A stretch of DNA of 60,432 nucleotides, the filler included. It is 5 parts of 5 records of this genome, joined end to end, with 100 filler letters (N's around TTAATTAATTAA, not from the genome) between each part and the next. Parts side by side here need not be neighbours in the genome. Positions count along the whole stretch, not along the records: positions 12,151 to 35,192 come from SRR31156797_25982; 4 more parts are not named here. One strand, given 5' to 3'. Every line of letters starts with the position of its first letter. Position 1 is the stretch's first letter. Below the pieces are notes generated by a model, which ran no database searches, was not told the origin of the DNA, and saw only the letters and a list, made by a program, of their open reading frames with translations. Made by a program: the position numbers and the translations under genes. Positions 13,815 to 34,990 of the stretch are shown one piece after another.

Positions 13815-14774
13815 TCACTGGATATACTTCAGCCCCTTTATCTTGTGCGGCGAAATTTCCTGCAGCCCAAAGGCGCCTTTCAGATCATGTTCCAGCTGCT
13901 CATCATGCGTTATGACAACAAGCCCGAGTACATTTGGAACATTGGTGGTTGGCGAGACTTGAAGTTCCCTGTCCGTAGCATCAACTAAACATCCCCCCTT
14001 ATCCTCGGTCAGGATGGTTCCTTTGAGCCGATACCACCGCGACTGAAACGGCTGCAATCGAGTTAAAAGATCAGCGGCAGTTTTGCCTGCCGGCGGGAGC
14101 AGCACAAAGCTCACTGGGCGCCCCGCCTCTCCCCAGCCTGCGTACTGCTCCTTATCCACACTCTGATATGCCCCCGAACGATTCTTGAGCATTTCCAACA
14201 GATCCACATCGAACTCGTCAGATAAAAAGGACAGGATCGGCTTGTCAGGATACTTACTACTCAGGTCCGCCCGCAACTCATCGGCTTCAGAGTCAGAAAT
14301 TAAATTAGTCTTACTCAGAAGGACCAAGCCACTGGCATCAATCTGCTCATGGATCACCATAAGACTCTGCTCAAGAATGCGGTGGCGCAGGGCGTCAACC
14401 ACGCTCACCATACCTAAACAGGTGAACTGTCCAGCTGCTTTTTTGCCAATTACCTCAACAATATCCTGCAGGGTCGAAGGCTTAGCCAGACCGGAACATT
14501 CGACCAATATAAGATCCGGACAAATATCCCGGTAAGCGAGCACCGCATCAATAAATGAACCGGAAAGACAGGAGCAGAATATCTGCCCGGACTTCAACTC
14601 TTTGATTTCACCGCTGATATGCTCGTGATCAAGAAGCTTTGAATCCACCATCAGCTCCCCGAAATCATTAACAATAACACCGAGCTTCAGATGACTGTAC
14701 TTCTGCAGCATCAAATTGAGCAGGGTTGTTTTCCCCGCACCAAGAAAGCCGCTGACAAACAAATAGGAAATCAC
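13815..14774 (-). CDS. CobW/COG0523 (G3E) metal-chaperone GTPase
   Basis: SGFLGAGKTT, VIVNDFG, FCSC, VECSGLAKP, LSKTNL. Its start overlaps the MT2 stop. Confidence 0.9.
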   Translation of the reverse strand: MISYLFVSGFLGAGKTTLLNLMLQKYSHLKLGVIVNDFGELMVDSKLLDHEHISGEIKELKSGQIFCSCLSGSFIDAVLAYRDICPDLILVECSGLAKPSTLQDIVEVIGKKAAGQFTCLGMVSVVDALRHRILEQSLMVIHEQIDASGLVLLSKTNLISDSEADELRADLSSKYPDKPILSFLSDEFDVDLLEMLKNRSGAYQSVDKEQYAGWGEAGRPVSFVLLPPAGKTAADLLTRLQPFQSRWYRLKGTILTEDKGGCLVDATDRELQVSPTTNVPNVLGLVVITHDEQLEHDLKGAFGLQEISPHKIKGLKYIQ

Positions 14775-16123
14775 AGAAGATCCTCAATCTCGGCAAACAG
14801 TTCTGACTGCGACGGAATCAAGGAGGAGTACTTCAATTCGCCGTTGATATAAATTGAGGGAAGTTGCTTTACCCCCATTTCCCTGCAGCGGGCAATATTC
14901 TGAGGTTCTGTGTACATATATTCGACCACATCAATGGCGTAACCGAACTTATCCTTAGCATCCATGGCAACAGCAAGCATATAGGTACAGGCCGCGCAAG
15001 CAGTGGAATCGAGGGTAAACACTTCAACAAGAGGCTTGTCCAGGTTGGCATATTCCGGGAGTTCACCTTCAAAAACAATCTCCGTGGATTGATAATTTGC
15101 TATCATCTTGCGCACAGCCTCTGTGTTGTGGGCTGCCTGCTCTGCTGCAATCACGTTTTCCGCCGGCGTTTCATAAGGAAGGTCGCAGCCGGGGGCCAGG
15201 ATGTAATTATCAGTTGAAGGGAGCGAGTCGATCAGATCGATTGCACCTTTCATATTGTCCTGCTGCGATCCATGCAGCATCACCGTTGTCAGTGGGAGAT
15301 TCCCACCCAGCACAACATTATGCTTGTCACATATTTCCTTTGCTGCCACCAAATCGACATTTTCATCAACGGAAATGGAGTCGCAGCCGGTCAAACACAT
15401 CTGGTCCAATTTCTTGGTGGCATCACCACAGACAAAGAAGGAGGATCGGATTCCCTTTTCATGAATACACTCAAAAAGTTCAGAAAAAGGAGTATGCATA
15501 AACTTTTTGAAGTGTCTGGGTGAAATCTGCGAGATCATCGGATCCACTACAGCAATGACATCCATACCGGTCTCCATAACGTAACCGGCGACTTTTTTGG
15601 AGACCTCGCAGCAATACTGCATAAGACTCTGCATGTAGTCAGGTTTCTCTATCATATCCATAAAGATCTCCGTTCCGCGAAGATGAAGCGCCAGAGTGAA
15701 TGGCCCTGTGATAAGACCATAAAGTGCGGTGGTCTCGCCAAACGCTGCCTTGGCACGACGCATCACGTCCAGCTCTATGGGCAACCGCCCCATGTCGGCA
15801 GTAATTTCCTGCTCAACAATTTCATCTGTTTCAGCAAAGGGATGGGTTTTCACTGTGGGAGGGGAATCAGGAGCCCAGAGCAGCTCGCAACCAAGCATTT
15901 CAGCTTCAATCTGCAGATCAAACATAATTGGCTGACCGTCAGGCTTGTAAAGCTCATTAACTTTAAGTAGAGATTCAAAACACTTGCCAGCTTCCTTATA
16001 GACTTCTTCAGCATTATAGCCGACCAGTTTCCCGGCATGCACACCGGCAAAAGGAACCCATGGAATGGTATCAACTTTTTGTCTGTTAAGCACCTGAAGT
16101 ATAAGTTCTTTTCCTGTAGTCAT
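14771..16123 (-). CDS. UroD/MtaA-family methylcorrinoid methyltransferase (MT2) with C-terminal thioredoxin-fold domain
   Basis: PWVPFAGVH, EAEMLGC, GPFTLA, VVDPM.SQISP, LGGNLP, ILAPGCD. The C-terminal ~90 aa contain CAAC and GVKQLPSIYING. Confidence 0.85.
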   Translation of the reverse strand: MTTGKELILQVLNRQKVDTIPWVPFAGVHAGKLVGYNAEEVYKEAGKCFESLLKVNELYKPDGQPIMFDLQIEAEMLGCELLWAPDSPPTVKTHPFAETDEIVEQEITADMGRLPIELDVMRRAKAAFGETTALYGLITGPFTLALHLRGTEIFMDMIEKPDYMQSLMQYCCEVSKKVAGYVMETGMDVIAVVDPMISQISPRHFKKFMHTPFSELFECIHEKGIRSSFFVCGDATKKLDQMCLTGCDSISVDENVDLVAAKEICDKHNVVLGGNLPLTTVMLHGSQQDNMKGAIDLIDSLPSTDNYILAPGCDLPYETPAENVIAAEQAAHNTEAVRKMIANYQSTEIVFEGELPEYANLDKPLVEVFTLDSTACAACTYMLAVAMDAKDKFGYAIDVVEYMYTEPQNIARCREMGVKQLPSIYINGELKYSSLIPSQSELFAEIEDLL

Positions 16124-16264
16124 AGTATTTTCTTCTTTGAGATTACATTATGAGTTCTATTTAATACATACAATGCAGTTCACATGAGGATTCCAACCAA
16201 ACACAATGGGCAAAACCACATACAAATGCCTTGTAAATGTTTCGAAACAAAAAATTCTCCGGCA

Positions 16265-18085
16265 TCACCGGAAACACATTCCATTAACAAATTCGTCCTG
16301 AAAATCCTGATGACTAGACACAGCAACATGTTGAATGGAGAACACATTTTCTTTTATATCCTTTTTCAGGATATCCTTATCACAGAGGGCAAGCTTAGCT
16401 CCTTCCCCTGCAGCGTTCCCTAGAGAGACCACTTTTTCGAGATCAATCTCCGGGAAAACTCCTATTTTCCTGGCGCTCTCTTTGTTGACAAAGTTTCCAA
16501 AAGCACCTGCAAGAAAAATCCTATCAATTTCTTCAAATTTCACTTGGGCAACGTTGAGTAAAATATTAATACCTGCCCTGATCGCACCCTTTGCAAGCTG
16601 CAGTTCTCTTATATCCTTTTGACTTATATAAATGATGTCTCCGTTTTGACTTTCACTTTCATAAGCTAGGGCAATACGTTTTCTTCTGTTCTTTTTACAT
16701 ATTCTTTTTGATAAACAGTGAGTGTCGATTTGTTCAGGTTCTGCAATCCTGCCACTTTCATCGACAAGCCCTGTCCTTAGAAGCTGACTCACTATATCTA
16801 TCAGACCGGAACCGCAGATCCCTTTAGCCGGTGCATTATCTATGGTTGTAAAGTGCAGATCATCACCTATAAACATACTATTTATTGCCCCACTAAAGGC
16901 TTGCATACCATGCTCTATACTTGCACCTTCAAAAGCCGGCCCGGCAGCAGTTGAGCATGCATACATCTGCCCCTGAGCGGAAAGAACAATCTCTCCGTTT
17001 GTCCCCAGATCTACAATCAGGACATTTTCCTTACTTCTTTTGACACCTGAAGCAATAACCGCACCAAGCGTATCTGAACCGAGGAAGCCCCCTATGCCTG
17101 GTAAAAACACAACTTTCCCAGTGGTGTTCATACCTGAAATTCCAGCCTTGCCTGCACCTTCTACTATCATGTCCCTGGTGACAGGGTTAAACGGCACTCC
17201 AGAGAGGCTGACAGGATTGAGCCCCCAAAAAATATGCTGCATGGTAGCGTTCCCAACCAACACACTTTCATATATATGATTTTCTTTAATATGTGCCCGA
17301 CGACAGACTTTTTTTAACAGTTCGCTGATACCTTCTTTAACCTTTGCACTCAAGACATGAAGCCCGTCATCATTTTGCAGGCAAAAATTAATCCTTGATA
17401 TGACATCAGCGCCATAAGCTGCCTGTGGGTTCTGCATAGACTCAACACAAACCTGTTTACCAACACTCAAGTCTATGAGATAGCAGGCTATAGTGGTAGT
17501 TCCTATATCAATTGCAGCTCCAAATTTTGCATACCGTGTATCCCCACACTCAACATCTATAAGTTGTTCATCATAGAGGGTTAACGTAATTGCATTTCCA
17601 TAGAGTTTCTTATTGGATATTTTCCTAAGAACATCTAATTGAACATCAACCTTTCCAACAGTATCCCTGACACATTCAACTACAGAAAGATCATCTTCAA
17701 TACTTGGTTCATCGACATGTATTAATCGTTTAGAGATACTGCTCTTCACGAGGTATTTACCAGATGCCTGTATTTTCTCCTTTGAATGGTTAATGACTCT
17801 ATCTTCTGCAAGGCAGACAGTTGCCTGACCGTTTATAAGTGTTTTGCATGCTAACCGTATCCCCTTTTCTTTCTCCTCACAGGTCAGAAAACGAAGTTCA
17901 TCGCTGGAAAGATCACTGACATCTCCAGTCACCCTCACCTTGCATTTCCCGCAAATACCTTTTCCCCCGCAAGGAGTATACAGCAGAACATTTTCCTGCA
18001 CGAGGAGGTCAAGCAAGCTGCAACCTGCTCCCTTCAATTTAACAACCCTTTCCAATGGCTGCATATGTGATGCGATACAATTCAA
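16265..18085 (-). CDS. ASKHA-domain reductive activase of corrinoid proteins (RACE, COG3894) with N-terminal 2Fe-2S ferredoxin
   Basis: CGGKGICGKC..RLAC, AIDIGTTT, NPQ..YGADVISRI, DLGTNGE, STAAGPAFEG, GICGSG, DIRELQLAKGAI. AGGAGGAG RBS. Confidence 0.93.
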   Translation of the reverse strand: MNCIASHMQPLERVVKLKGAGCSLLDLLVQENVLLYTPCGGKGICGKCKVRVTGDVSDLSSDELRFLTCEEKEKGIRLACKTLINGQATVCLAEDRVINHSKEKIQASGKYLVKSSISKRLIHVDEPSIEDDLSVVECVRDTVGKVDVQLDVLRKISNKKLYGNAITLTLYDEQLIDVECGDTRYAKFGAAIDIGTTTIACYLIDLSVGKQVCVESMQNPQAAYGADVISRINFCLQNDDGLHVLSAKVKEGISELLKKVCRRAHIKENHIYESVLVGNATMQHIFWGLNPVSLSGVPFNPVTRDMIVEGAGKAGISGMNTTGKVVFLPGIGGFLGSDTLGAVIASGVKRSKENVLIVDLGTNGEIVLSAQGQMYACSTAAGPAFEGASIEHGMQAFSGAINSMFIGDDLHFTTIDNAPAKGICGSGLIDIVSQLLRTGLVDESGRIAEPEQIDTHCLSKRICKKNRRKRIALAYESESQNGDIIYISQKDIRELQLAKGAIRAGINILLNVAQVKFEEIDRIFLAGAFGNFVNKESARKIGVFPEIDLEKVVSLGNAAGEGAKLALCDKDILKKDIKENVFSIQHVAVSSHQDFQDEFVNGMCFR

Positions 18086-18234
18086 TCTAGGGCTCCTCCT
18101 ACTTGACTTTCAGATAAACAGGTCTTCACGGAACAATGACAGTGCTTCGCTGGTAATCATGAACAAACAGATTCCCTGGTGTCACCATGCGAAATGTAAA
18201 AATAAAGTTACAAGGAGAGGACATCATCCAAACG

Positions 18235-20217
18235 CTACCTTGCGTAACTAACAGGCTGAGCGCTCAAACTTGGCCGCCCGGTTGCAGTAACTCCAAATGC
18301 TGTCTCCACGTGAACCCCTTTAACTCCTTCAGCAGAATCAACAAATAAATCCCGGTCATTCACTATAATTTCGAAGTCTTGCACACCGGCTTTTCCTGCC
18401 TCTGCTTCAATTTTTTCATTGGCAATTTTGAGTGCATATATTTTTGCTTTTTCCACATCCTGAAATTTTACCCTTTCCCATGGTGCGTACAGCACCACAC
18501 CATCCGCAGAGTCCGTTTTAATAAGTATACTTATCCTTTGTATCCACTTCCCGGTTGCTGCTCCAACAGCATTTGCTACTTCATGGTTTTCAGGAATTAT
18601 AATTTCAGCATTAACTTTTTTAGCTACTGACGGGATATAAGCCTTTACCGGAGCGCCTACGGCTACAATAGGAAAATGAATCTTTGGCGTGATACCAAAT
18701 GACGAGTTGCTGTCTGGATGAAGCATTTTCCTGATAAAATACTGCGCATCACTGCTTTTCTTCAGCTGCACATCGCTCAGTTCACTATCAAGGAGAGTTT
18801 GAAAAATTAACTTGCTAATTTTTTCGCAAATTCTTTCTTTTGAATGTTCCAAAAAGCCATCGATGGTCATGCCAAGCTTATCGGCTAAAATTTGCGCCCC
18901 TATTCTAGAAGCGTCACTGTTCCATCGTGCATATACGCCGCTGGCATGCAGGATATCTGTTGGAGTAAGCGATATCTTTCGCACAACTCCTTTATCGAGC
19001 AGAGGGGCGATGTCGAAGAACCGATATTGCCTCCTCATACATTTCTCAACATACGAGGTCACATGCGGCCCTGACTCCAACAGCCTGACAAGGGCCTGCT
19101 CCTTTTCAGTGAAAGCATCACTTCCACTGGCAGCAACAAGCATTAAGCAATCGGCAGGATTTGATTTGGACACTGCCTGCTGCGTTTCCCGAAGACCTGC
19201 AAGCTCACCAACAAGATAGGGGTATTTATGAGCCGCGACACAAAGAGGTACCACTTTCTGAGGACCAATAATCAACTGCTTATTGCTGTCGGCCTGGATA
19301 TAACTGTCACCACCTACACCGTAAGTGTTTATGTCAACAGCCTGAACCCGGGTTAGCCACCCATCAACCGACGCACCTTCCGGGTTAACCTTTGGCACAC
19401 CACCCTGTACAACGGCAATATCTGTGGTCGTCCCCCCCATATCTAAAACCAGTGCATCTGTACAATCTGTTAACGAAGTGCTGCCAATTATACTTGATGC
19501 AGGACCGGAAAGGATGGTCTCAATCGGCCTTTCTTTAGCCACATTTTCATCCATCAACGACCCATCTCCTTTAACTATCATCAATGGGGCGTTAACATCT
19601 AAATCTGCAAGAACTGTATTTATTGACTCAATCAGATCAACTATTATTGGAACCAACTGAGCGTTTAAGACGGTGGTTACAGTTCTTTCGTAATAACCTA
19701 GGGATCTTGACAACTGATGTGCACAAACAACTGGAATACTCAACGCCTCCTGCACCTGTTGCAGTACATACAATTCATGCTCAGGGTTCCTCACGCTAAA
19801 ATATCCTGAAATCGCCACTGCACTTACTTTCCCCCTAAATTCATCGACAGCATCAATAATTTCCTGGGGATTGACATTCTCAAGAGAAACACCTTTGACA
19901 TCGTGTCCCCCTTTTATTTTCTTACAGTACTTTACCGGAAGCTTGCCTTCAGGCTTCCTTCCAATAATAATCAGCCCGGCCTCACAGCCACGACCTTCAA
20001 CAATTGCATTTGTTGCTAAAGTAGTTGATAGAGAAACCCCACAAATACCTTTCTTACCATCCACACCAAGCGAACACATGCACGCCTTTATGCACTTGGT
20101 TAAGTCATCATAGGTGGTCAACAATTTAGCTTTTTTTATGATGGCATGACTTGATACATCAAAAAGAACACCGTCGGTATAGGTGCCCCCTGTATCAATA
20201 CCTAATATTAGACTCAT
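18235..20217 (-). CDS. Hydantoinase/oxoprolinase family protein
   Basis: LGIDTGGTYTD, STTLATNAIVEGRG, ERTVTTVLNA, ETILSGPASS, DMGGTTTD, VANAVGA. Start placed at MSLILG (20217). Confidence 0.9.
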   Translation of the reverse strand: MSLILGIDTGGTYTDGVLFDVSSHAIIKKAKLLTTYDDLTKCIKACMCSLGVDGKKGICGVSLSTTLATNAIVEGRGCEAGLIIIGRKPEGKLPVKYCKKIKGGHDVKGVSLENVNPQEIIDAVDEFRGKVSAVAISGYFSVRNPEHELYVLQQVQEALSIPVVCAHQLSRSLGYYERTVTTVLNAQLVPIIVDLIESINTVLADLDVNAPLMIVKGDGSLMDENVAKERPIETILSGPASSIIGSTSLTDCTDALVLDMGGTTTDIAVVQGGVPKVNPEGASVDGWLTRVQAVDINTYGVGGDSYIQADSNKQLIIGPQKVVPLCVAAHKYPYLVGELAGLRETQQAVSKSNPADCLMLVAASGSDAFTEKEQALVRLLESGPHVTSYVEKCMRRQYRFFDIAPLLDKGVVRKISLTPTDILHASGVYARWNSDASRIGAQILADKLGMTIDGFLEHSKERICEKISKLIFQTLLDSELSDVQLKKSSDAQYFIRKMLHPDSNSSFGITPKIHFPIVAVGAPVKAYIPSVAKKVNAEIIIPENHEVANAVGAATGKWIQRISILIKTDSADGVVLYAPWERVKFQDVEKAKIYALKIANEKIEAEAGKAGVQDFEIIVNDRDLFVDSAEGVKGVHVETAFGVTATGRPSLSAQPVSYAR

Positions 20218-20443
20218 TACTTTTTCCCTTTTACAAAGAATCAATCAAACAGCTCGTGACACGAAACAACAACCGCTTGCACTCATAATTGTTTATCCAT
20301 TGAACTGTTTAAAATCCCCATCGCGTAAAGGATCTCTATTTTATTACATCTCAGACAGCCGCTATGTATCCACCACAGAGGCTCTAACTATCCGGAATCA
20401 CACATCTCGAAGACGCAAGTCGTTACAACAAGAGATGACGAGA

Positions 20444-20489: not shown

Positions 20490-21941
20490 TCAGTACAACT
20501 CTTCCCCTTTAAGTTCAGGGTATTGCTTCCTTAACTTCGCTTTCATTTCCGGATCAACCGGGCTTGGAATATGCTTCTTCAAAATTTTACTAACTACTTT
20601 GCGAGCTCGCTGTTCTGTAGTTAACGAACCACCCTCTTCCCACCTGACACGGGTTTGTCTGTCAGCAATTTTGGGAATAAAAAACTCCTTACGCAGATGG
20701 CTTACGGTGTGGTCTTCCGCCAGAAAATGGCCGGACGGCCCTACAGCCTTGATTACGTCAAGCGCGAGTGTATCTTCATTGACCTTGATACCCTTCATGA
20801 CGCGTAAGACGTTGCCAAGAATCTCATTGTCAATAACCATCTTGTCATAAGAAAACACCTGGCACATTTCAAGCAGACCAACTGAGTCATGAATAAAGTT
20901 ACTGCCGGACAAAGCGACGGTCATTGCAGTAACAGCACTTTCATATCCTGCCTGGCTATCATTTATTTTTGAATCCGACATACCGGCGGTTCCGTACATC
21001 GGAAGGTTATAAAACTGCGTCATTTGAGAGATAGCAGCATTGATCATGGCTGATTCAACGGCACCGGCCATATATGTACCTTCCCTCATATCCATAATAC
21101 TTGAAGTGGAACCGTACAAAATCGGGGTTCCCGGATTAACTAGCTGAGTAAGAGTAATACCTGCTAACGTCTCGGCATTATTCAACGCAACAGTACCGGC
21201 AATGGTGATAGGTGCGGTGGCACCAGCCAGCGGCTCAGACGAGACAACAAGCGGCAACCCTTTCCTTGCAATTTCAATGAGAAAGTCTGAATACAAATCA
21301 TCCATTACCAGAGGGCTGATCATCAGCACAATGAAGGACGCAATAGGGCGTTCCCGAAGATTTTCAACACCTCCGGCAATTTGTTCAGCTATGTCGATGG
21401 CTCCCTTCAACCCATCCATGGTGTACATACCACCGGTGACATGCTTGGTCGTATTGGTTAGTGCCCAGTAGAAGCGGTTAACATCAGAGTCTGTATCCGG
21501 TACATCCTGAGGATATGTATTGATAACGTAAAAGGAGACGTTATCGCAGTAATCCACCATACGCGCGATATCCCGCACATCATCGGTCCGCGACTTTCTC
21601 TTTTCACCGGACTCAAGATCCAGAGCGTATAATACGGTACCGCCTGTACCAAAATGAGTACGAGTACCTTCAAGATGCAGGTCATGCTTTTCATCCTGCG
21701 CATACAGCACTACTTTTGACGGCGCAGTCTCAATAGCCTTTTCAACCAGTGATCTTGGTATTTTAACTATTTCTGTCGCGTCATCTACCTCAGCTCCGTT
21801 CTTTGCAAAATACTCTCTTGCCTCTTTATTTTTAATTTTCATACCTGTTTCTTCTAAAATCGTCATAGAAGTCTCATGTATGGACTTGATGTCATCTTCG
21901 CTCAGCAAACTTAGCTGACCACCATCAACAGCTGGAAACAT
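20490..21941 (-). CDS. Trimethylamine methyltransferase (MttB) superfamily protein, non-pyrrolysine type
   Basis: IHETSMTILEETG, GATAPITIAG, QLVNPGTP, GMSDSK..DSQAGYES, GSNFIHDSVGLLE, VGPSGHFL. No in-frame TAG; Met sits at the position preceding SD.K. Confidence 0.93.
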   Translation of the reverse strand: MFPAVDGGQLSLLSEDDIKSIHETSMTILEETGMKIKNKEAREYFAKNGAEVDDATEIVKIPRSLVEKAIETAPSKVVLYAQDEKHDLHLEGTRTHFGTGGTVLYALDLESGEKRKSRTDDVRDIARMVDYCDNVSFYVINTYPQDVPDTDSDVNRFYWALTNTTKHVTGGMYTMDGLKGAIDIAEQIAGGVENLRERPIASFIVLMISPLVMDDLYSDFLIEIARKGLPLVVSSEPLAGATAPITIAGTVALNNAETLAGITLTQLVNPGTPILYGSTSSIMDMREGTYMAGAVESAMINAAISQMTQFYNLPMYGTAGMSDSKINDSQAGYESAVTAMTVALSGSNFIHDSVGLLEMCQVFSYDKMVIDNEILGNVLRVMKGIKVNEDTLALDVIKAVGPSGHFLAEDHTVSHLRKEFFIPKIADRQTRVRWEEGGSLTTEQRARKVVSKILKKHIPSPVDPEMKAKLRKQYPELKGEELY

Positions 21942-21985: not shown

Positions 21986-22624
21986 CTAGGCAGCGTCCAT
22001 TAATCTATTGGCCAAATCAACAGCTGAAGACGCATCTGGTGCGTACTGTGCTCCTATCTCATCTGCAAAATTGTCAGTAATCGGAGAACCACCAACAATA
22101 ACTTTTAATCCGTCATACAAACCATTTTCCTTTAAGGCTTCTACGGTATCCTTCATGTTCACCATGGTGGTAGTCAGCATAGCGGCCATGCCAACAATGT
22201 CTGGCTCATGTTCTTTTACAGCTGCAACTATTGTTTCCGAATCAACATCCACACCCAGGTTGACAATTTCATATCCTGCACTTTCCATCATCATGCTGAC
22301 AAGCTTCAAACCAATGTCATGGAGGTCACCCTTAACTGTAGCAACCACGCAGGTGCCAACTTTTTCAATATCCCCTTCCTTGAGAAATGGTTTCAGCAAT
22401 TCCATTCCAGAATTCATAGCCTTGGCTGATACCAAAACCTCTGGTACGAACAGCTCCCCATCCTTAAAGAGCTCACCCACTTCACTCATTCCAGGAAGCA
22501 ATCCCTTGTTGATAATTTCTTTTGGGTCTGCCCCTTCATCAAGTGTCTTTTGTGTTAACGCTATAACTTCTGAAACATTGCCGTCGACAACATTTTCTGA
22601 AAGTTGTTCATATGCCTTTTCCAT
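21986..22624 (-). CDS. Methyltransferase cognate corrinoid protein (MttC/MtgC-like)
   Basis: LFVPEVL..AKAM, GDLHDIG (DxHxxG), NLGVDV, LTTTM, VIVGG.P. Confidence 0.95.
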   Translation of the reverse strand: MEKAYEQLSENVVDGNVSEVIALTQKTLDEGADPKEIINKGLLPGMSEVGELFKDGELFVPEVLVSAKAMNSGMELLKPFLKEGDIEKVGTCVVATVKGDLHDIGLKLVSMMMESAGYEIVNLGVDVDSETIVAAVKEHEPDIVGMAAMLTTTMVNMKDTVEALKENGLYDGLKVIVGGSPITDNFADEIGAQYAPDASSAVDLANRLMDAA

Positions 22625-23860
22625 TTATTTTCTCCTGAACTCCAATTGTAAATTCAAACTAAAGTATTTAATTATTCTTCGTTAACGATGTGCAGGACTG
22701 TGCGCCCGGCAGCCAGCCAGCATGACCGGTCCACTCACCAGCCGCAACACAACATTAAATTTTCTTTTTCCAGCACAGGTATTTTCTGCACCTGTGACAG
22801 ACTTTCGCGTTAAAAAAGTGAATCAAAACCATTCATTTTTACTGAATAGATTTTGAAAGCAGCTGATCGACAAACACCTCTTTATTTCCAATACGTTTCC
22901 ACGTGCCTGTTGTTTAACAACCGATATCTCTGTCGAATATATGGGGCGACCGCAGCAAGATTACCGGCAATACCAATTTATATTCCCAAGCCGATCTCAC
23001 TGTTAAAAAAACAATCCTCTGTAAAATCAGCTGAACTGCTCACCCCGAAGCAACGATGCAGAGCTTCCCACATTTTCTTTTACAGCTTTGCAATAGAGAA
23101 AATCCAACTACTAGAAAAGGCCAACGATTCATACTACCTGCTGTTCAATATCGAGAGAATCCTCCAATTTAATATTAATGTCAAGAAAAAAAAATTATCC
23201 TCAGGAACTTTTTACTTTCTCTACAAACAGAAGAAAGGCCAAGATGAATCAGGGCCAGCAACAAAAAAAACGACTCTTGCAACGGAAAATTACCTCGAAA
23301 CTTTAGAAACTTAGACACTACATCAACAATGAAACAGTGACCACGGAAGCACAACAAAGACGCTTGGCCTTCAGCCTGTAACAATTCCCCAGATCCAATT
23401 CACGTAAGAATACAGCCGATCTTGCGCCCCAACCACCCCGCAAGGAAAATGTGAAATAACGGTAACGGCATACCCTTATCTGCCTGCCCGCAAAGAGGAT
23501 CTTCACCATGCATATATGCTCAATACACCAGACAACTGGCCAGGCCTCTATCCCTACCCCCGCCTACCAGTGTGCCTTGAAGAGAGACAACGAAGGCCTA
23601 AGAAAACAATATGATTTCACTTTGCCCATAACCAAGTTACCCGAAGCATCATCACTTCCATGACCCCACTCCAGAACACCACTCCAGCAAACATTACAAA
23701 AATGAACATTTACCTACAATTTTGGTTACATTTTTGAAGATTCCCACGGGGAACCTTTTTGTCCTCATGGGAACAATACTGGAAAGAATAAAAATTTCCT
23801 GCGGTGAAACAAACTGTTATTGCGTGAAATTTATATTTTCTGCGACCTACCCTGCCAACA

Positions 23861-23876: not shown

Positions 23877-23891
23877 GTTGAATTACCCTGA

Positions 23892-26343: not shown

Positions 26344-27264
26344 ATGTGCGGCATAGCAGGTATCCTGTTTAAACACAACAAAACAAGAAACTTTAACCAA
26401 TCGACAGGCACAGCCCTGACTGAAATGCTCGACGCAATACTTCACAGAGGACCAGATTCTGCTGGTTGGGCCATTTACAAAGAGCCCCTTCCCGATACTC
26501 TGCGCATGCGTTTCATCATCCCTGAAAAAGGAACAAAGGAGCAGGAGCTCGAAAAGGTCAATACGCTGCTTACAGAGCAAGGTGTTTCAATTGTCAAAAC
26601 CGAACACCTCGGCTGCTCTCTGGGTGTGCATGCAAAATACAATGGCGACATCCTTACTCTCACCCACGCTATTGAAAAAGAACTTAAGCCGGTTTCCATT
26701 GGCCAGAGTCTAGATATTCTCAAGGATGTGGGACAACCCATGGAGCTGGCTCCACAATATCGCATCAACGAATTCAATGGCAGTCACGGCATTGCCCATA
26801 TTCGGCTGGCCACAGAGTCCGGGGTGCACGCAGATACTGCCCATCCGTTCTGGGCCTGCGGTTTTTCAGATATCTCCACAGTTCATAACGGCCAGGTGAC
26901 CAACTACTGGATCATGAGGAGACGGCTTGAACGATTCGGCATGACGTTCCAGACTGAAAACGACACTGAACTCATTGCCGTTTACCTGGCCTACCAGATG
27001 AGTTGCGGGGCAGACCTGGAAGATGCTCTCAAGGCCTCTCTGGAGGACCTTGACGGCACTTTCTCCTATCTCGTAGCCACCAAAAATGCTATCGGCTATG
27101 CCAAGGATAAACTTGCAGCAAAACCCATGGTGAAATACGAAAATGACGAAATGATCGTTCTGGCATCAGAAGAGGTAGGAATTAACCGCCTGTTCCCAGG
27201 CCAAGCTCTGGAAACAAGCGAACCAGCCCCCATGACATACGGTCTATGGTCCCGGGCAAGTTAA
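26344..27264 (+). CDS. mgsA: Class II glutamine amidotransferase, N-methylglutamate synthase subunit A-like (MgsA/GlxB)
   Basis: N-terminal nucleophile MCGIAG, HRGPDSAG, H.RLATES, AHPF, VHNGQ, ENDTE. Precedes the GXGXG/FMN gene and gmaS. Confidence 0.85.
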   Translation: MCGIAGILFKHNKTRNFNQSTGTALTEMLDAILHRGPDSAGWAIYKEPLPDTLRMRFIIPEKGTKEQELEKVNTLLTEQGVSIVKTEHLGCSLGVHAKYNGDILTLTHAIEKELKPVSIGQSLDILKDVGQPMELAPQYRINEFNGSHGIAHIRLATESGVHADTAHPFWACGFSDISTVHNGQVTNYWIMRRRLERFGMTFQTENDTELIAVYLAYQMSCGADLEDALKASLEDLDGTFSYLVATKNAIGYAKDKLAAKPMVKYENDEMIVLASEEVGINRLFPGQALETSEPAPMTYGLWSRAS

Positions 27265-27400: not shown

Positions 27401-30400
27401 ATGGCAACCATAGATCTTTCCCAAATGCCGACGCGCACAGCAAACGAAGTTATCCGCGGTTACGGGGCTATTCACGAACCTATTGAAATCATCAACCCAG
27501 ACGCCAGACATTATATAGGTGTCGGCCTAACCTCAGCGGTACCAATAACCATTCACGGCTCTGCCGGTTATTTTTGCGGCGGCTTAAGTGACGGCCCAAT
27601 CATCACTGTTGAAAAAAATGTCTCATGGGGCGTCGGTGACAATATGCTTTCCGGCACCATTTATGTTGGCGGAAACGCAGGTGCCATTGCAGGAGTTGCG
27701 CTGAGAGGCGGAGATATTATCATCAACGGCAATATGGGTTCAAGATCCGGCCAGGTGATGAAAAAAGGCACCCTGTGCTGTTGCGGTAACTCTTCTTTTA
27801 TGGCCGGCTACATGATGTACGGCGGTCGAATTATAATTCTGGGCGACTCCGGGCAGAAGGTTGGCGAAAACATGGCCGGCGGAGAAATATATGTTGGAGG
27901 GACCATTAAGTCACTGGGCGCAGACGCAATGGAGGTTGCCCCGACAGACATTGATCTTGAAGATATCACGACTTTTCTAAAGGCCCACGATATTACTTTT
28001 CCTGGCACTTTTAAAAAGATTGTTTGCGAAGGAAAAGACCTGAAATATTCTATTCCGGAGCCACCTTCCAAAAGAACGCCTTTTCCCCGTTTCTCCGGCC
28101 CGGACGCCCCGTACTGGAATGACAAGGTCGTCGAAGATGCCCGAGTCAAAGGCAAGATCGGCAGATATCGTCTCCGTGGATTCGGCGCATCACGGCATGT
28201 CCCCCATTTTAACGATATCACCTTCAAAAAACCACTCACCGCCTTTAATCCTGAAGTCCTGAAAAAGGTTAACTTGCGGACCTTTATCGGTGATCGACAT
28301 GGAGCACGTGCCCTGGATCTTTCCATGCCAGTAATGATTGCGCCAATGAGTTACGGAGCAGTCAGCCCAGCGGTCAAGCGCGCACTGGGACAAGCCTCAG
28401 CCATGTCTGGGATCAGTGAGAACACAGGTGAAGGTGGAATGTATTCAGTGGAGCGCGCCGAAACCACCCAACTCATTGCCCAGTGCCTGTCTGGCCGGCT
28501 AGGCTGGAATATCCATGACATGCAGCGCGCCGACGGAATCGAGCTCTATATCTCACAGGGAGCCAAGCCAGGACTTGGTGGACAGCTGATGGCGGCAAAA
28601 CTCACCAAGGAAATTGCCGCAATACGGGGCATTGCTGAAGGCATGGACCTCAGATCGCCTTCCCGCCACCCTGACGTGCTTGGGGGAGACGACCTTATCA
28701 TGAAGATCAGGGAGTTCAGGGAAGCCGTAGGCTGGCGTTTACCAGTAAGCCTTAAACTAGGAGCCGGAAGAACAAGAGATGATGTCAAAATTGCGTTCAA
28801 GGATGACCTGGATTTCGTTGAACTCGACGGGCTTCAGGGTGGAACCGGCGCAGGCGGAAACGAAGTTCTGGAATATGTTGGCATCCCAACTATTTCGGCC
28901 ATTATGGAAGCCATGGACGGTCTCGATGAAATAGACGCAACTGGCCAACTTCCCATTGTCCTGATGGGGGGGATCCAGAACGGGGTGGATGCCGCCAAGG
29001 CCATCGCCCTGGGCGCAGCGGCAGTTGGCATAGGCACCCCTATTCTCATTGCAGGGGGCTGCATAGGTTGTATGCAGTGCATAACGGGCAAATGCCCACT
29101 TGGTATAACGACCCAAAACCCCAAACTGGTGGATCGTTTTAATGTCCAGGAAAATGCCTTGCGAATGCACAACTACCTTGAATCATTCAGATGGCAGATG
29201 GCAGCAATTACTAACGCACTTGGCCATAGCGACGTCCACAGCCTGTGCCGGGATGATCTTGTCGCACTTACTCCCGAGGCAGCCGAATTGACCAGGCTCC
29301 CATACCGTCCGGACTTACGTCCCGAATCGCTACCGACCACCGTCAAGCCTGAAAAGGAAACCGGCACAGCAAACTATCCGAAGTCTTCTCTCGAGCGGAT
29401 CCAGAAGATGGCTCAAGCTGAAGGGGATGAATCCAGAGAAGAAATTCTCGTGCAGTCATTAACCCCGAGACCCAATCCTTTTCCAGATAACCATGCACCG
29501 AGCTTTGACGATGTAGTTTTCCTCTCTGCAGCGCTCACCCGACTGGTTATTGACCCTTATAGGGAGGACTGCTCCACTAAAACCTGTATTACCAGAATTA
29601 CCGGACTCGGCAAACCAGATCCAGATCAACCCAGATTGAACCTTGAAACACCGGTTATAGCCACCGGTTTTGACGCTGCTCCAGAGCCTGTTAAAAGAGC
29701 GCTGGACAGAGCGCTGACAGCCTGCGGTGCGGCCTACCTCGGTTCGAGCCCTCTTACTGAAAGCAGCAGCACAGCCTGGCTTCAGCAGGTCACATCCGGC
29801 GTAGCGCCTTCAGCATCCGCAGCAGGACTTGTTTACGGGGCCGACGTCAGTAGTGACGAGATTAAGCGGTTGAACCCAAAACAGATACTCGGTCGATACA
29901 CCAGGAGCGGAACTGTTACCGAGGCCGTGGACAATTGCCTGGAACAAAAGATGGATCTCTTGCTCCTTGACTCTAGCAAAGGTATCGAATCGCCCTGGCC
30001 TGAACTGGACGGAGAGTTTGACCTCACCGTCATGCGCGATGCTATCGCAAGACTAAGGCAAGTAAATAAGGAAGAAGAGGTTGCGCTTGTCAATTTCGGT
30101 GGTCTGCGTTCTGGCACGGATTTAGCAAAATCTCTAGCGTTCAATTGTACGAGTTCTGTCTATGCAGTGGCATTGGCTATCGCAATGGGCGGAGTGACCG
30201 ACAATGGAAAAATTGATTTTTCTAATGCTCACGATGAATATAAAATGGCTGGCGCTGCAGAAAAATTTATTCGGGCCACTACCCAGGAAGTTGCGATCAT
30301 TTCCAGGTGCGCAGGCAAAACCAACATTCATAACTTGGAGCCGGAAGACATGCGGAGCATGACTATTCCGACCGCCAAGGCTCTTGACCTGCCCATGACC

Positions 30401-30430
30401 TCTGGTCAGGTCAAGCGTGAAGGGTTTTAA
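27401..30430 (+). CDS. Fused N-methylglutamate synthase B/C-like protein: GXGXG domain, FMN glutamate-synthase domain and a second degenerate FMN-type domain
   Basis: aa ~1-215 GXGXG beta-helix. aa ~235-640 IAPMSYG, NTGEGG, SQGAKPGLGG, DLRSPSRHPD, DG.QGGTG, CIGCMQC....CP. aa ~700-1009 repeat the MgsC-type ends (PSFDDVVFL...; CAGKTNIHNLEPED). Confidence 0.85.
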   Translation: MATIDLSQMPTRTANEVIRGYGAIHEPIEIINPDARHYIGVGLTSAVPITIHGSAGYFCGGLSDGPIITVEKNVSWGVGDNMLSGTIYVGGNAGAIAGVALRGGDIIINGNMGSRSGQVMKKGTLCCCGNSSFMAGYMMYGGRIIILGDSGQKVGENMAGGEIYVGGTIKSLGADAMEVAPTDIDLEDITTFLKAHDITFPGTFKKIVCEGKDLKYSIPEPPSKRTPFPRFSGPDAPYWNDKVVEDARVKGKIGRYRLRGFGASRHVPHFNDITFKKPLTAFNPEVLKKVNLRTFIGDRHGARALDLSMPVMIAPMSYGAVSPAVKRALGQASAMSGISENTGEGGMYSVERAETTQLIAQCLSGRLGWNIHDMQRADGIELYISQGAKPGLGGQLMAAKLTKEIAAIRGIAEGMDLRSPSRHPDVLGGDDLIMKIREFREAVGWRLPVSLKLGAGRTRDDVKIAFKDDLDFVELDGLQGGTGAGGNEVLEYVGIPTISAIMEAMDGLDEIDATGQLPIVLMGGIQNGVDAAKAIALGAAAVGIGTPILIAGGCIGCMQCITGKCPLGITTQNPKLVDRFNVQENALRMHNYLESFRWQMAAITNALGHSDVHSLCRDDLVALTPEAAELTRLPYRPDLRPESLPTTVKPEKETGTANYPKSSLERIQKMAQAEGDESREEILVQSLTPRPNPFPDNHAPSFDDVVFLSAALTRLVIDPYREDCSTKTCITRITGLGKPDPDQPRLNLETPVIATGFDAAPEPVKRALDRALTACGAAYLGSSPLTESSSTAWLQQVTSGVAPSASAAGLVYGADVSSDEIKRLNPKQILGRYTRSGTVTEAVDNCLEQKMDLLLLDSSKGIESPWPELDGEFDLTVMRDAIARLRQVNKEEEVALVNFGGLRSGTDLAKSLAFNCTSSVYAVALAIAMGGVTDNGKIDFSNAHDEYKMAGAAEKFIRATTQEVAIISRCAGKTNIHNLEPEDMRSMTIPTAKALDLPMTSGQVKREGF

Positions 30431-30697: not shown

Positions 30698-32080
30698 ATG
30701 AAGACCAAGGAAATCAACAAGAAAGAACAAATAAAAACTGAGTTAACCGAAAGAGGAATTGAGTTTATCTTGACCCAGTTTGTCGACATTGACGGATGCC
30801 CCAAGGTCAAGCAGGTGCCAATTGACAGCTTTGACGCTGTCGTGGAAGATGGGGCAGGTTTTGCAGGTGCTGCTGTTTGGGGCATGGGGCTCGGACCTGA
30901 AAGCCATGACTTAATGGCGAGGACCGATCTTGACACCTTTACCCAGCTGCCCTGGCAGCCTAACGTTGCTATGGCCGCCTGTGACCTGTTTGTCGACAAA
31001 AAGGCCTGGCCCCTTTGCCCAAGAACCAACTTGAAAAGGATGCTGGCTCGCCTTGCTGAAAGGAACATGATCCTTAATGGTGGCTTCGAACCCGAACATT
31101 TCCTGGTGGTACGCGACGGTAACAAAATTAAGCCATGGGATCCCAGTGGAATCGATACTCTAGCTAAACCCTGTTATGACTTCAAGGGACTGTGCCAGAG
31201 CATGGACTACCTTCAAGATATCACCCGCTACGGCAACGCAATGGGATTTGGCATTTACCAGAGCGACCATGAAGACGCAAACGGTCAGTACGAAATTAAC
31301 TATGGTTGGACTCACGCTCTTGGAGCAGCCGACCAATTAATCCACTTTAGAATGCTGTCTAATCAGGTAGCGCGCAAATACGGCGCCATAGCAACCTATC
31401 TAGCCAAACCCTTTGCTAACAAGACAGGCTCAGGTGCGCACTTCCACTTTCATGTTGCCGACCTGGAAACAGGTCACAATCTCTTCCCTCTTCCCCAAGG
31501 AGAAACGGACTGGAAAGGACTTGGGATGTCAGAGACTGCCATGTATTATGTAGGCGGACTCCTCAAACACATACGTGCCCTGACAGCATTGTCATCACCG
31601 CAGGTCAATTGTTACCGACGTATCCAGAGTGGAGAATTTGTTTACTCCTCTGATTCTGGAAATACCTGGACTCCCTCTTTTGGCTCGTACGGAGATAACA
31701 ATAGAACTCAACTACTGAGGAGCCCAGCTCCCAACCGATTTGAGGACAGGTCACCCTCCGGCATGGTCAATCCTTACCTCTACCTTGCCGCTCATATCGG
31801 AGCAGGACTTGACGGCATTGAAAACAAAATTGACCCGGGCGAAGCAATTATTGGTAAAAATGTGTGGAACATGTCCATCAAAGAGCGAAAGGAAATGGGC
31901 ATGATCCTCCTGCCTCAGAACCTCCTGGAAGCCGTGGGAGAACTGGAAACAGATGAAGTAATCAAGGAAAGTATTGGTCCAATTGCAGATGAATTTATAC
32001 ACCTGAAGAAGGCTGAATGGGGTACTTACATGCGACACGTTACCTCCTGGGAAATAGACAGAACCCTGACCATGTTCTAA
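30698..32080 (+). CDS. gmaS: Gamma-glutamylmethylamide synthetase-like type III glutamate-ammonia ligase (GmaS/GlnT)
   Basis: GAGFAG, D.L.KPCYD, YQSDHEDANGQYEIN, TGSGAH.H, SG.TW.P...SYGDNNRT, NPYL. GGAG RBS before ATG 30698. Adjacent to mgs genes. Confidence 0.85.
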   Translation: MKTKEINKKEQIKTELTERGIEFILTQFVDIDGCPKVKQVPIDSFDAVVEDGAGFAGAAVWGMGLGPESHDLMARTDLDTFTQLPWQPNVAMAACDLFVDKKAWPLCPRTNLKRMLARLAERNMILNGGFEPEHFLVVRDGNKIKPWDPSGIDTLAKPCYDFKGLCQSMDYLQDITRYGNAMGFGIYQSDHEDANGQYEINYGWTHALGAADQLIHFRMLSNQVARKYGAIATYLAKPFANKTGSGAHFHFHVADLETGHNLFPLPQGETDWKGLGMSETAMYYVGGLLKHIRALTALSSPQVNCYRRIQSGEFVYSSDSGNTWTPSFGSYGDNNRTQLLRSPAPNRFEDRSPSGMVNPYLYLAAHIGAGLDGIENKIDPGEAIIGKNVWNMSIKERKEMGMILLPQNLLEAVGELETDEVIKESIGPIADEFIHLKKAEWGTYMRHVTSWEIDRTLTMF

Positions 32081-32198: not shown

Positions 32199-32669
32199 AT
32201 GGCTTATAATCACATCCTGGGTTTACTAAAAAAAAGCGGACTGCCCTACACCCTACATGACCACCACCCAGTCACCACGATAGAAGACGCCAGATCCAAA
32301 GTACCCCATTTAACAGTGAACCTGATTAAAACTGTCGTTTTTCACATCAAAGACAGCCACTGGATTCTTGCCGGGGTCAACGGAACGGATCGCATCCACT
32401 ACAAACATCTCGGAGATGCCTTTGGGGTCAACCGGAAACTGCTCCGATCAGTCTCCCCATCAGAGGTTGAGTCAGAACTGGGATTTCAAATCGGCGGGGT
32501 AGGCCCATTTCCGGTAAATGACGATATCAGGATAATTCTGGATCAAGAATTGATGAACCTGGGCACGATTTTCTGTGGAAGTGGAAAAAATACAGTTACC
32601 ATCGAGATGGCCGTACATGATCTGGCTGCGGTGACAGAAGCAAGGGTTGCAGCTATCAGGAAAGAATAA
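32199..32669 (+). CDS. YbaK/ProX-family aminoacyl-tRNA editing domain protein
   Basis: H.PVTTIEDA, LIKTVVF, LGFQIGGVGPF, IILDQ, CGSG. Confidence 0.88.
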   Translation: MAYNHILGLLKKSGLPYTLHDHHPVTTIEDARSKVPHLTVNLIKTVVFHIKDSHWILAGVNGTDRIHYKHLGDAFGVNRKLLRSVSPSEVESELGFQIGGVGPFPVNDDIRIILDQELMNLGTIFCGSGKNTVTIEMAVHDLAAVTEARVAAIRKE

Positions 32670-32673: not shown

Positions 32674-33276
32674 TCAACCGGCATCATGGGCCCGATGCGA
32701 GACCATGACGGAAAGAAATCGTATGGGCAGGTGAATAAGTTCCTCTGGCCCGTGAGTCGCATCAGAGTTGAAGAGCAGGGAATCACCAGGCTCCAGATGA
32801 TAGGATCCGTTGGCAAGGGTGTACACCATCTCACCCTCCAGCATATAAATGTATTCCATCCCCGAGTGCTGGAACAAAGGAAAGACCTCGGATTCTTCAT
32901 TCAAGGTTACTAGATAGGGCTCAACTGTAACATTCTTACCAAGACTGTGACCTAGAAGTTGGTACTGATGCCCTGTACGGCTCCCTCGCCTGTCAATGGC
33001 GACCCCCTGACCAGCCTTAACAAAACTGGCATCGCGCTCCTCCTCAAACTTTCTAAAAATAGCAGTAAGAGGTATATTTAGAGCCAAAGACAACGATTGA
33101 AGAGTGGATAGCGAAGGAGAGGTGTTACCGGTTTCAATTTTGGACAACATCCCTGCCGACAAAGAGGCCAAGTTCGCTAGTTCGGCAATTGTTAAACCGA
33201 TCTTTTTTCGATATCCTCTAATTTCTCTGCCGATGGACCGTTCAATGGTATTTTCAGTCCCGTTATCTCCACTCAT
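32674..33276 (-). CDS. XRE-family HTH-cupin transcriptional regulator
   Basis: GLTIAELANLASLSAGMLSKIETGNTSPSL plus a cupin (FQHSGMEYIYMLEGEM...PGDSLLF....HGP). This type is often seen beside methylamine/glycine-betaine loci. Confidence 0.92.
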   Translation of the reverse strand: MSGDNGTENTIERSIGREIRGYRKKIGLTIAELANLASLSAGMLSKIETGNTSPSLSTLQSLSLALNIPLTAIFRKFEEERDASFVKAGQGVAIDRRGSRTGHQYQLLGHSLGKNVTVEPYLVTLNEESEVFPLFQHSGMEYIYMLEGEMVYTLANGSYHLEPGDSLLFNSDATHGPEELIHLPIRFLSVMVSHRAHDAG

Positions 33277-34276
33277 TATCCGCCCTTAAGGTTATATTAG
33301 TCGCAAGCCCTGCTGGCTACCGATGGCTTTCCAGTAACATACAAACAGGAGATCTCATTTCAGCCTTTTTTTCAACTCCCACTTAAAGCGTCCTGACCAG
33401 CCTGTCACAAAGTCTCAACTTTTCCGTTTCTTGCATGACAGCAATCAACATCACTACGATTTTAACTTAAAAAGACAAAAACAGTAAAAAACAAATTGCC
33501 GCTTTTGCAATATAGTAATTTAACAAAATAGCATTAATTTAAAAAAAATCCAATTATTTATTGCATTTCCCACAAAACAATTAGATTTTTTCATGAAAAA
33601 ACAGACTATATTTATCAACAGCCTTTTAATTAATACCTATTTACCAAAAGAAAATAACAAACTATAGCACATGCACTTTAAAGTGAATAACAAACCTGGA
33701 GACCCATTGCAAAACTTAAAACACATTGCGAAAGCTTAACAATTTACTAAATGAACACAACGCCAACACTGCTATTTAGTATTTATCGATGACAACGACG
33801 AACTTGAACAGATTACGTTGTTATGAAGATGCTCTCGTAAAATCAAACACAAACAAGCCTTAAACACAACCAACGAAAAAATGCTGACTGTCAGCAGCAC
33901 CTATTTAAGAAGGATACCATCTCAAGGAACCTTCAACAATCTCTGTGCAAAAGACTTTAATTAGTTCAATGATTACCAATGACGCTCTCTTTGAGTTTAC
34001 CAAAGGAAAGATATTATCGATAAACGGCATGAAATTTTTTATACTAGACAGAGACGGAAGGGAGAGAAAATGCGTCCTCCTTTAGCAGCAGGCTACCTAA
34101 GAAGACACGACGTGACACCGCCTCTATGCAAGAGGTCATGTCACATTTCTTTGACTAAACTCAGTTGAGCACACCAGCCTGTTTACAAATAATTAAAAAC
34201 GAAAAAAGGCGGTAAAGCAGCCATAAAACTGCTCCGAATCTGCCCGCCTAAGTAGAGAGAACCTAATTGGAAATCT

Positions 34277-34990
34277 ATGAACGTATTAACTGAAATCAAC
34301 ATCAAAGTGACCCCCCAGGAAGTCCTACGCCCCCTGTGCCGTGGACGGAGGGATCCTTCCTGGATGCTCGATGAAGCAAAAACGGCTATTGAGACGGCCT
34401 TCGACCTCTGGCGCCCGGTTATCGTTTTTGAATGGGTCTGGGTTTTAGGTATGAACGGCGAGACAATGACCGTTCTTGCCGAGCAAACTGGACAGAAAGC
34501 CCAACTTCAAATCGGCCCACATATCCACCTCCTTTCAAAGGCTGAGATGGCTCTGGTTTCTATCAACAGCATTGGCGCCAAACTGGATCAAAAAGTCAAT
34601 GAACTGAACCTGACTGGGGAAAACCTCGCAGCATACATCCTGGACAGCGTTGGGGTTGTGGGATTAAGCAAGGTTGGTAGTGCAGCTTCGGCCCTGGCCG
34701 AACAAGAGGCTGCCCAAAGGTGCTGGGGCGTCGGGCCTCGATTAAGCCCCGGCTCTTTGGAAGGATGGTCCGTGGAAGGGCAGCAGGACCTCTGCAGCCT
34801 ACTTCCTTTAGAGAAGGGAGGACTCAAACTTAACCAGAACGGCCTGATCATTCCGTTTAAGTCTGCTTCCGGCCTGATTGGCCTGGGGCCGGAATACCAA
34901 TCTTCAAAAGTAGGGTCAGTGTGCAAGCTCTGTGAGCACAAAGACACCTGCTGGCGCAGGCAACCAGACACAACCGAAAACCGTGGATAA
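34277..34990 (+). CDS. Stand-alone methionine-synthase activation-domain-like protein
   Basis: SIGAKLD...AYILDSVG, RLSPG..GW...Q, IIPFKSASGLIGLG, C-terminal CKLC..C. Confidence 0.7.
   Translation: MNVLTEINIKVTPQEVLRPLCRGRRDPSWMLDEAKTAIETAFDLWRPVIVFEWVWVLGMNGETMTVLAEQTGQKAQLQIGPHIHLLSKAEMALVSINSIGAKLDQKVNELNLTGENLAAYILDSVGVVGLSKVGSAASALAEQEAAQRCWGVGPRLSPGSLEGWSVEGQQDLCSLLPLEKGGLKLNQNGLIIPFKSASGLIGLGPEYQSSKVGSVCKLCEHKDTCWRRQPDTTENRG

Follow-up and report, generated by a model that had tools for sequence, protein, structure and literature searches.

A contig of 23,042 bases from a sulfate-reducer-type bacterium (positions 12151-35192 of the window – the whole stretch of DNA analysed, 60,432 nucleotides in which five contigs are joined by runs of N) appears, with a probability of roughly 0.55, to encode a version of the N-methylglutamate (NMG) pathway of methylamine use that needs no oxygen and in which NMG is demethylated onto a corrinoid protein. 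Genes for NMG synthesis – gmaS and the mgs genes, headed by glnK and amtB – lie there divergent from an operon for a corrinoid methyl-transfer system whose first methyltransferase (MT1) is a non-pyrrolysine member of the MttB superfamily (Table 1).

In the proposed pathway the Amt transporter would bring in methylammonium, gated by GlnK, and GmaS would join it to glutamate with the use of ATP, giving gamma-glutamylmethylamide. MgsA, as amidotransferase, and the fused flavoprotein MgsBC would convert this to NMG, freeing nitrogen, and the MttB protein would take the N-methyl group from protonated NMG and place it on the Co(I) corrinoid protein, regenerating glutamate and taking the place of the sarcosine-oxidase-like NMG dehydrogenase. 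An MtaA-type methylcorrinoid methyltransferase (MT2) would hand the methyl group to an acceptor, most likely tetrahydrofolate, for entry into the Wood-Ljungdahl pathway, and RACo would keep the corrinoid active, perhaps with CobW and a hydantoinase-like ATPase. That MttB acts on NMG, what accepts the methyl group and which way the flux runs are all inferred; NMG is the most economical choice of methyl donor because it alone explains the missing dehydrogenase.

Linkage of MttB with gmaS and mgs

Gene identities were checked with Pfam and NCBIfam profiles, and every gene named in an earlier, sequence-only reading of this DNA has a match, below threshold in one case (the gene likened to methionine synthase activation, see below). 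MT1, a B12-binding protein, MT2 and a RACo/RamA-type activator are encoded in one operon, and thus make up a three-component corrinoid system. Their order is kept at L001 and L002, the loci of two Desulfobacterium metagenome-assembled genomes (MAGs), G001 and G002, which were among 11 loci obtained in a scan of species genomes for MttB.

The MttB proteins of G001 and G002 are 88-89% identical to that of the window. At L001 and L002 the genes run on one strand in the order glnK-amtB-mgsA-mgsBC-gmaS-ybaK-corr-mttB-hydA-RACo-MT2-cobW-lyase, whereas the window arrangement is divergent; because the whole set is together at these loci in another order, it has been held together through rearrangement. 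The co-conservation of gmaS/mgs with genes for MttB, the corrinoid protein and the reductive activator of corrinoid enzymes (RACE), which the sequence-only reading had proposed to look for in Desulfobacterota, is thus present in both MAGs.

A second MttB lineage, 46-48% identical to the window protein, is found in gmaS/mgs clusters of G122, G775, G713 and the metagenome locus L060 (Desulfobacterales). Its gene separates mgs from gmaS in L060, G775 and G713 and adjoins them in G122, accompanied by genes for its own corrinoid protein and a pterin-binding MT2. Placement in the MttB phylogeny, also suggested earlier, shows the two gmaS-linked groups to be separate clades, with the window's group nested among Bacillota sequences. 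Because the gene set is kept in reordered form in two genomes and a second MttB lineage is embedded likewise, the linkage is more than chance, and there is good support for a functional link between MttB/corrinoid systems and gmaS/mgs.

Distribution of NMG dehydrogenase genes

A tblastn search of the whole 60-kb window revealed no DAO/SoxA/SoxG-like sequence, in agreement with the earlier statement that the 23-kb contig lacks mgdABCD or sarcosine-oxidase-like genes. Surveys of relatives identified GmaS in 5 of the 401 genomes that represented the phylum and in 9 of the 401 that represented the order (G001 belongs to both sets), and 80 metagenome loci, out of 303 relatives, were retained for GmaS comparison. 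A census covered 12 GmaS-bearing genomes, of which G001, G002, G122, G775 and G713 have MttB in the cluster and G397, G593, G507, G552, G664, G665 and G768 do not. An Mgd/Sox-like dehydrogenase is encoded by none of the five genomes with cluster MttB versus all seven without it (0/5 vs 7/7; Fisher probability 1/792, calculated by hand). G148 and G115, with GmaS proteins 46 and 43% identical, were left out of this count; both have the classical gmaS-mgs order and no MttB within about 20 kb.

Among the MttB-linked genomes, G001 and G002 have no SoxB-class protein over the cut-off, and G001, G002 and G122 have no full-length SoxA-like protein. The best match to the DAO protein of G397 is 29% identical in G001 and in G002, 42% in G775 and 32% in G713, and there is none in G122. 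Within the other group, the module of G397 and G593 (xre-cupin, mgsA, mgsBC, a GltD-like gene and gmaS, with ybaK in G397) includes DAO and SoxA-like genes, with a SoxG-like gene in G397, and the G397 genome has no MttB family gene anywhere. Neither MttB nor an mgd system adjoins gmaS in G507, G552, G664, G665 and G768, and an orthologue of the G397 DAO (60-64%) is located elsewhere; SoxA- and SoxG-like genes follow it in G507, G552, G664 and G768, and in G665 the contig ends there. Apart from G397 and G593, mgd-type genes are present in 25 of the 78 metagenome GmaS loci of the tree.

Three of these genomes have further corrinoid genes. G507, which has an mgd-like operon, has genes for a corrinoid protein and a pterin-binding MT2 directly after gmaS (L140 383-1848) with no MT1 near, an arrangement that could be an intermediate or remnant state. 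In G664 (L163) and G665 (L164) the mgd-like operon is within a few kb of a distant MttB-family gene with a corrinoid protein, and methylamine-type and betaine-type modules are therefore neighbours there.

The MttB protein

The mttB reading frame has no in-frame stop, and Met321 aligns to the pyrrolysine of Methanosarcina barkeri MttB (X of 7xcl), as in the non-pyrrolysine branch. The protein resembles the pyrrolysine-dependent MttB and MtmB of methanogens and some bacteria in its score against TIGR02369, the trimethylamine methyltransferase model (515 bits, 10 bits under the cut-off of 525), and in a match to Rfam PYLIS_3 that begins at the equivalent codon. It differs in that this codon is AUG (Met) and not UAG, and in that G001 and G002 have neither pylD nor an MtmB family gene; falling short of the cut-off and without an in-frame UAG, it does not class as a trimethylamine methyltransferase. 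PYLIS_3 also matches mttB in L001, L005, L006, L046 and L060, all of them stop-free, and because many of the model pairs are non-canonical we read the match as conservation of coding sequence. The codon replacing UAG is AUG in the window's group and CAG (G122, G713) or CAA (L060, G775) in the second group; CAG is one step from UAG.

The window protein was aligned to the solved structures 7xcl and 9yce and scores 316 bits to MtgB. The betaine site of MtgB from Desulfitobacterium hafniense has Y97 and F356 in cation-pi contacts and R312 and H348 at the carboxylate, and R312 is conserved in all characterised non-pyrrolysine members, according to PMC13080624. Y97, R312, H348 and F356 are T, Y, D and C in the window MttB (0/4 kept); the Tyr at the R312 equivalent is as in the pyrrolysine-containing MttB, and at two of the MtgB positions the window protein shares Thr and Tyr with M. 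barkeri MttB. These site residues are common to the whole subfamily, gmaS-linked or not. Judged by its predicted substrate site, the window MttB is not a betaine enzyme, and it falls in an uncharacterised MttB branch.

GmaS and the Mgs proteins

The best solved relatives of the ligase are 9qur, a 'Glutamate--methylamine ligase' (388 bits), and 7cql (326 bits), and true glutamine synthetases (GS) score no more than 235. Residues that distinguish GmaS from GS were taken from PMC7948447, whose numbers are 20 below those of the 7cql chain. In the alignment to 7cql the window protein keeps Tyr147, Gln175, Asp177, Glu179, Glu186, Asn188, Lys30', Arg312 and Arg317; it has FAGAA where GS has FDGSS (Ala for the ammonium-binding Asp50', with Ser53 also lost) and Trp at RhGmaS Trp300, where GS has the Glu of the Glu-flap. 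On these sequence features the ligase is GmaS and not a glutamine synthetase. G001 and G002 each contain another two GS genes, plus other Glu_synthase-domain genes, and the cluster is therefore not their housekeeping system of GS and glutamate synthase (GOGAT).

Beside gmaS are all three parts of an Mgs enzyme – an amidotransferase with N-terminal Cys, a GXGXG domain and a flavin mononucleotide (FMN) Glu_synthase domain – and their order is alike in 12 related genomes. The FMN domain of MgsC is 33-46% identical to Mgs of classical loci versus 31% to a G001 paralogue, in pairwise comparisons. MgsB and MgsC are fused, as the sequence-only reading had it, and the fusion continues through a further C-terminal segment of ~370 residues (29318-30427, +) that went unmentioned there. 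This is a conserved TIM-barrel-like domain without a Pfam family (weak Glu_synthase match, E 0.15), whose AlphaFold2 model has a mean predicted local distance difference test score of 67, with a core above 90; Foldseek relates the model to FMN/phosphate-binding TIM barrels at template-modelling scores of 0.35-0.43. In G397, G122, L060, G768, G664, G593 and G775 the domain is fused instead to a GltD-like protein with Fer4_20 and Pyr_redox_2 domains. We rejected the idea that this barrel is the MT1, since the mgd-type clusters of G397 and G593 have it too.

Other genes of the contig

The two operons are separated by 1.3 kb, in which an open reading frame (ORF) at 22853-23314 has no Pfam or NCBIfam match. 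A sigma-54-like -24/-12 site with one consensus mismatch lies at 23861-23876 (+), 48 nt before the glnK ATG; its placement is suggestive, and the motif is not enriched in the window (34 matches vs 31.9 expected). A scan of the intergenic region for sigma-70 promoters and terminators gave results below the shuffle mean. Amt genes (25-32% identity) and the XRE-cupin regulator recur in classical mgd-bearing gmaS loci, as here, and the regulator is found in nearly all related clusters. The ybaK gene is kept beside gmaS or mgd genes in L001, L002, G397, G768, G664 and G665. At the far end of the contig, the ORF of the 'Met-synthase activation-like' gene exists, and its identity is not upheld by the PF02965 match, which is sub-threshold (Table 1).

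MT2 scores 146 bits to the TIGR01463 subfamily, under the cut-off, and has MtaA (4ay7) as its best solved relative. In that alignment both Cys of what we take to be the zinc site are retained, with Phe at the His position, from which no conclusion on the methyl acceptor is drawn. The hydantoinase_A-like gene follows MttB in the window, G001, G002 and Sporomusa malonica (L004 11555-13522, 45% identity), and is absent from the second-lineage MttB clusters, the Dethiosulfatibacter aminovorans locus and a Clostridia MAG locus; a search of the ESM Atlas returned only a family name for its product. Just downstream of the S. malonica copy is a Guanidine-I riboswitch (L004 13778-13873, +; 85.7 bits).

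CobW is kept in L001 and L002 at 75% identity. The lyase gene, cut by the contig end, is 780 bp beyond cobW in the window and directly after it in L001 and L002, where the full-length homologue has 619 aa with cNMP_binding, Lyase_1 and FumaraseC_C domains (L001 copy at 17850-19709). About 0.5 kb past this cluster-ending gene in G001 (L001 20200-20420, -) there are matches to 5S rRNA and the 3' part of 23S rRNA. The first contig of the window (1-12050) codes for a methyl-accepting chemotaxis protein, a LysR regulator, a TctC-type receptor and a large hybrid sensor kinase, and its G+C content shifts from 42% to about 57% near base 2000.

Table 1. Features of the contig, with window positions, strand and profile evidence
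Feature	Position	Strand	Evidence
cNMP-binding + Lyase_1 (aspartase/fumarase class) protein, 5' part of gene, cut by contig end	12151-13035	-	Pfam
CobW/HypB/UreG-family GTPase, putative metal or cobalamin chaperone	13815-14774	-	PF02492 E 1.3e-33
MtaA/CmuA-type (URO-D fold) methylcorrinoid methyltransferase (MT2) with C-terminal Thioredoxin_3 domain	14771-16123	-	PF01208 E 3.4e-56, PF13192
RACo-type reductive activator of corrinoid enzymes (2Fe-2S + ASKHA ATPase)	16265-18085	-	PF14574, PF17651, PF00111, PF17650
Hydantoinase_A/oxoprolinase-like ASKHA protein without HyuB partner	18235-20244	-	PF01968, PF05378, weak MutL
Non-pyrrolysine MttB-superfamily methyltransferase (MT1)	20490-21941	-	PF06253 E 1.1e-120, residues 9-472
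Rfam PYLIS_3 match inside mttB, from Met321 codon (AUG where true mttB has UAG)	20882-20981	-	45 bits, gathering score 38
Corrinoid (B12-binding) protein	21986-22624	-	PF02310 + PF02607
Divergent intergenic region	22625-23924	.	1.3-kb gap between two operons
GlnK/P-II nitrogen regulator	23925-24263	+	PF00543 E 3.6e-33
Amt-family transporter (AmtB), proposed methylammonium uptake route	24288-25799	+	PF00909; TIGR00836 over cut-off
MgsA-like class-II N-terminal nucleophile (Ntn) glutamine amidotransferase, N-terminus MCG	26344-27264	+	PF13522, PF13537
Fused MgsB (GXGXG) + MgsC (FMN Glu_synthase), 1009 aa	27401-30430	+	PF01493, PF01645
GmaS, likely ATG at 30698 (listed ORF from TTG 30623)	30698-32080	+	TIGR03105 481 vs 469.6 bits
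YbaK/ProX-type aminoacyl-tRNA editing-domain protein	32199-32669	+	PF04073
XRE helix-turn-helix + cupin regulator (PuuR-like)	32674-33276	-	PF01381 + PF07883, weak PuuR match
237-aa ORF, possibly MetH activation-domain-like	34277-34990	+	PF02965 E 0.15, 11.9 bits, residues 168-215; not significant

Discussion

The corrinoid version of the methylamine pathway would be a previously undescribed form of the known NMG pathway, and no publication was found linking MttB/corrinoid systems with gmaS or N-methylglutamate, or N-methylglutamate with the Wood-Ljungdahl pathway. It is like the pathway known from marine bacteria and aerobic methylotrophs (GmaS, MgsABC, MgdABCD) in its complete GmaS signature, three Mgs domains and intact Ntn Cys, and differs in the absence of MgdABCD from the window, G001 and G002, in the fusion of MgsB and MgsC with an extra barrel, and in a host lineage with acetyl-CoA synthase; CdhC/acetyl-CoA synthase is encoded in 5/5 of the MttB-linked genomes. 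Its architecture of MT1, corrinoid protein, MT2 and activator is that of the MtgB-MtgC-MtgA glycine betaine:tetrahydrofolate system of D. hafniense and of the MtpB, MtcB, MtyB and MthB systems of Eubacterium limosum. Unlike the MtgB-type systems, it retains no betaine-binding residue of the four, has no betaine transporter, is proposed to act on a secondary amine, and uses an MtaA-type MT2 with a thioredoxin-like domain rather than a pterin-binding one. GS-GOGAT with GlnK-AmtB has homologous folds and the same gene order (transporter, regulator, ligase, amidotransferase/FMN protein), but the ligase here lacks the ammonium site, and relatives have separate GS and Glu_synthase genes.

The sequence-only reading had a non-pyrrolysine MttB/corrinoid system replace NMG dehydrogenase after GmaS and Mgs. 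This proposal has gained from the co-conservation, the second MttB lineage and the complementary distribution of dehydrogenase genes, and it is held back by a substrate that is only deduced and by Bacillota kin of the MttB that lack GmaS. Extended to both pyrrolysine-free MttB lineages, it is close to an even bet: the two would be NMG:corrinoid methyltransferases, the first superfamily members to act on a secondary amine, each displacing a flavin NMG dehydrogenase in Desulfobacterales. Sulfate reducers would thus convert methylamine to methyl-tetrahydrofolate and ammonium without O2 or pyrrolysine, and pass the methyl group into the Wood-Ljungdahl pathway.

Several observations weigh against demethylation of NMG by MttB. 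The GmaS tree needs just two changes for the contrast between MttB and mgd, and the 12 genomes therefore count as two independent events. The absence of mgd genes applies to the 60-kb window and the genomes of relatives, and that of pylD to the relatives G001 and G002. G001 and G002 hold a weak DAO and Fer2/Pyr_redox pair, and G002 also an 820-aa DAO-GcvT protein, which are candidate NMG oxidisers. In the second lineage pylD is present in G775 and G713, so that the avoidance of pyrrolysine suggested earlier stands for G001 and G002 and fails as a general rule; G122, G775 and G713 have stop-free MtmB homologues. The unit glnK-amtB-mgsA-mgsBC-gmaS stands alone in L049, with neither MttB nor an mgd system within 10 kb. 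Every characterised non-pyrrolysine MttB uses a quaternary amine, in the published accounts drawn on here, and NMG is a secondary amine.

The closest relatives of the window MttB (73-81% identity) count on the same side. They are in Bacillota – D. aminovorans, S. malonica and the Clostridia MAG – and these genomes have no GmaS over the cut-off; 0/401 genomes from the phylum of the Clostridia MAG match GmaS at E 1e-90, in a search run without a positive control. The S. malonica orthologue has genes for a BCCT betaine-type transporter, DAO, a pterin MT2 and a GcvT-SHMT fusion as neighbours, a context pointing to uptake of an N-methyl compound, for instance dimethylglycine or sarcosine. The row of the Clostridia MAG (L003 9269-21276) comprises a corrinoid protein, MttB (78% to the window's), a sigma-54 activator, a further corrinoid protein, a second MttB and a URO-D MT2, and ends in a GltS-like Na/glutamate symporter (51 bits) and a 610-aa double CN-hydrolase; these last two fit a glutamate derivative, and the symporter counts in favour of NMG.

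We consider it unlikely that the window MttB demethylates another, imported N-methyl compound (dimethylglycine, sarcosine or an N-methyl amino acid), with gmaS/mgs as neighbours through a shared methylated-amine/nitrogen regulon and NMG demethylated by an unrecognised enzyme. This explanation accommodates the GmaS-free orthologues, the S. malonica gene context and the sameness of MttB site residues in gmaS-linked and other members, and corrinoid-dependent demethylation of dimethylglycine is proposed for other anaerobes in PMC9768040. It leaves unexplained, however, why genomes with cluster MttB are without the Mgd/Sox-like operon that all other GmaS genomes of the census have, and how two separate MttB lineages came to be placed between mgs and gmaS; and the Desulfobacterium-type clusters have Amt as their only transporter and none of the betaine type.

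Demethylation by MttB one step earlier, of gamma-glutamylmethylamide to glutamine, would make 'Mgs' (with its GltD-like partner in relatives) an archaeal-type glutamate synthase, and the whole a GS-GOGAT cycle with mid-way demethylation. Each of the three Mgs domains has its homologue in GltB, and the GltD-like Fer4_20 and Pyr_redox_2 protein in the seven clusters listed above is a hallmark of NAD(P)H-dependent glutamate synthase. Yet by established chemistry an amide nitrogen should be a very poor leaving group for Co(I) attack, a GltD-like gene is missing from the clusters of the window, G001 and G002, and sarcosine-oxidase-like genes, whose products oxidise secondary amines and not amides, accompany the GltD-bearing module of G397 and G593; we regard this scheme as quite improbable. 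That the plus-strand genes serve ordinary ammonium assimilation (GlnK, AmtB, a type III glutamine synthetase and a split glutamate synthase) beside an unrelated corrinoid operon is highly improbable: the glnK-amtB head of the operon with its sigma-54-like site, the NCBI name of TIGR03105 ('type III glutamate--ammonia ligase') and the solitary five-gene unit of L049 speak for it, but the ligase has lost Asp50', Ser53 and the Glu-flap Glu and has the full GmaS methylamine pocket, relatives keep other GS and Glu_synthase genes, related GmaS loci contain mgd-type genes, and the MttB linkage recurs in two lineages.

At present MtmB, a pyrrolysine enzyme, is held responsible for the anaerobic use of monomethylamine, and the NMG pathway is treated as an aerobic trait with gmaS as its marker gene. 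If NMG is demethylated onto a corrinoid as proposed, methanogens in anoxic marine sediments could face competition from sulfate reducers for a substrate now classed as 'non-competitive', and surveys of gmaS would count anaerobes too. It would also be a new substrate class for the MttB superfamily, whose many uncharacterised members in Bacillota, including those of the gut, may act on N-methyl amino acids and not on betaines.

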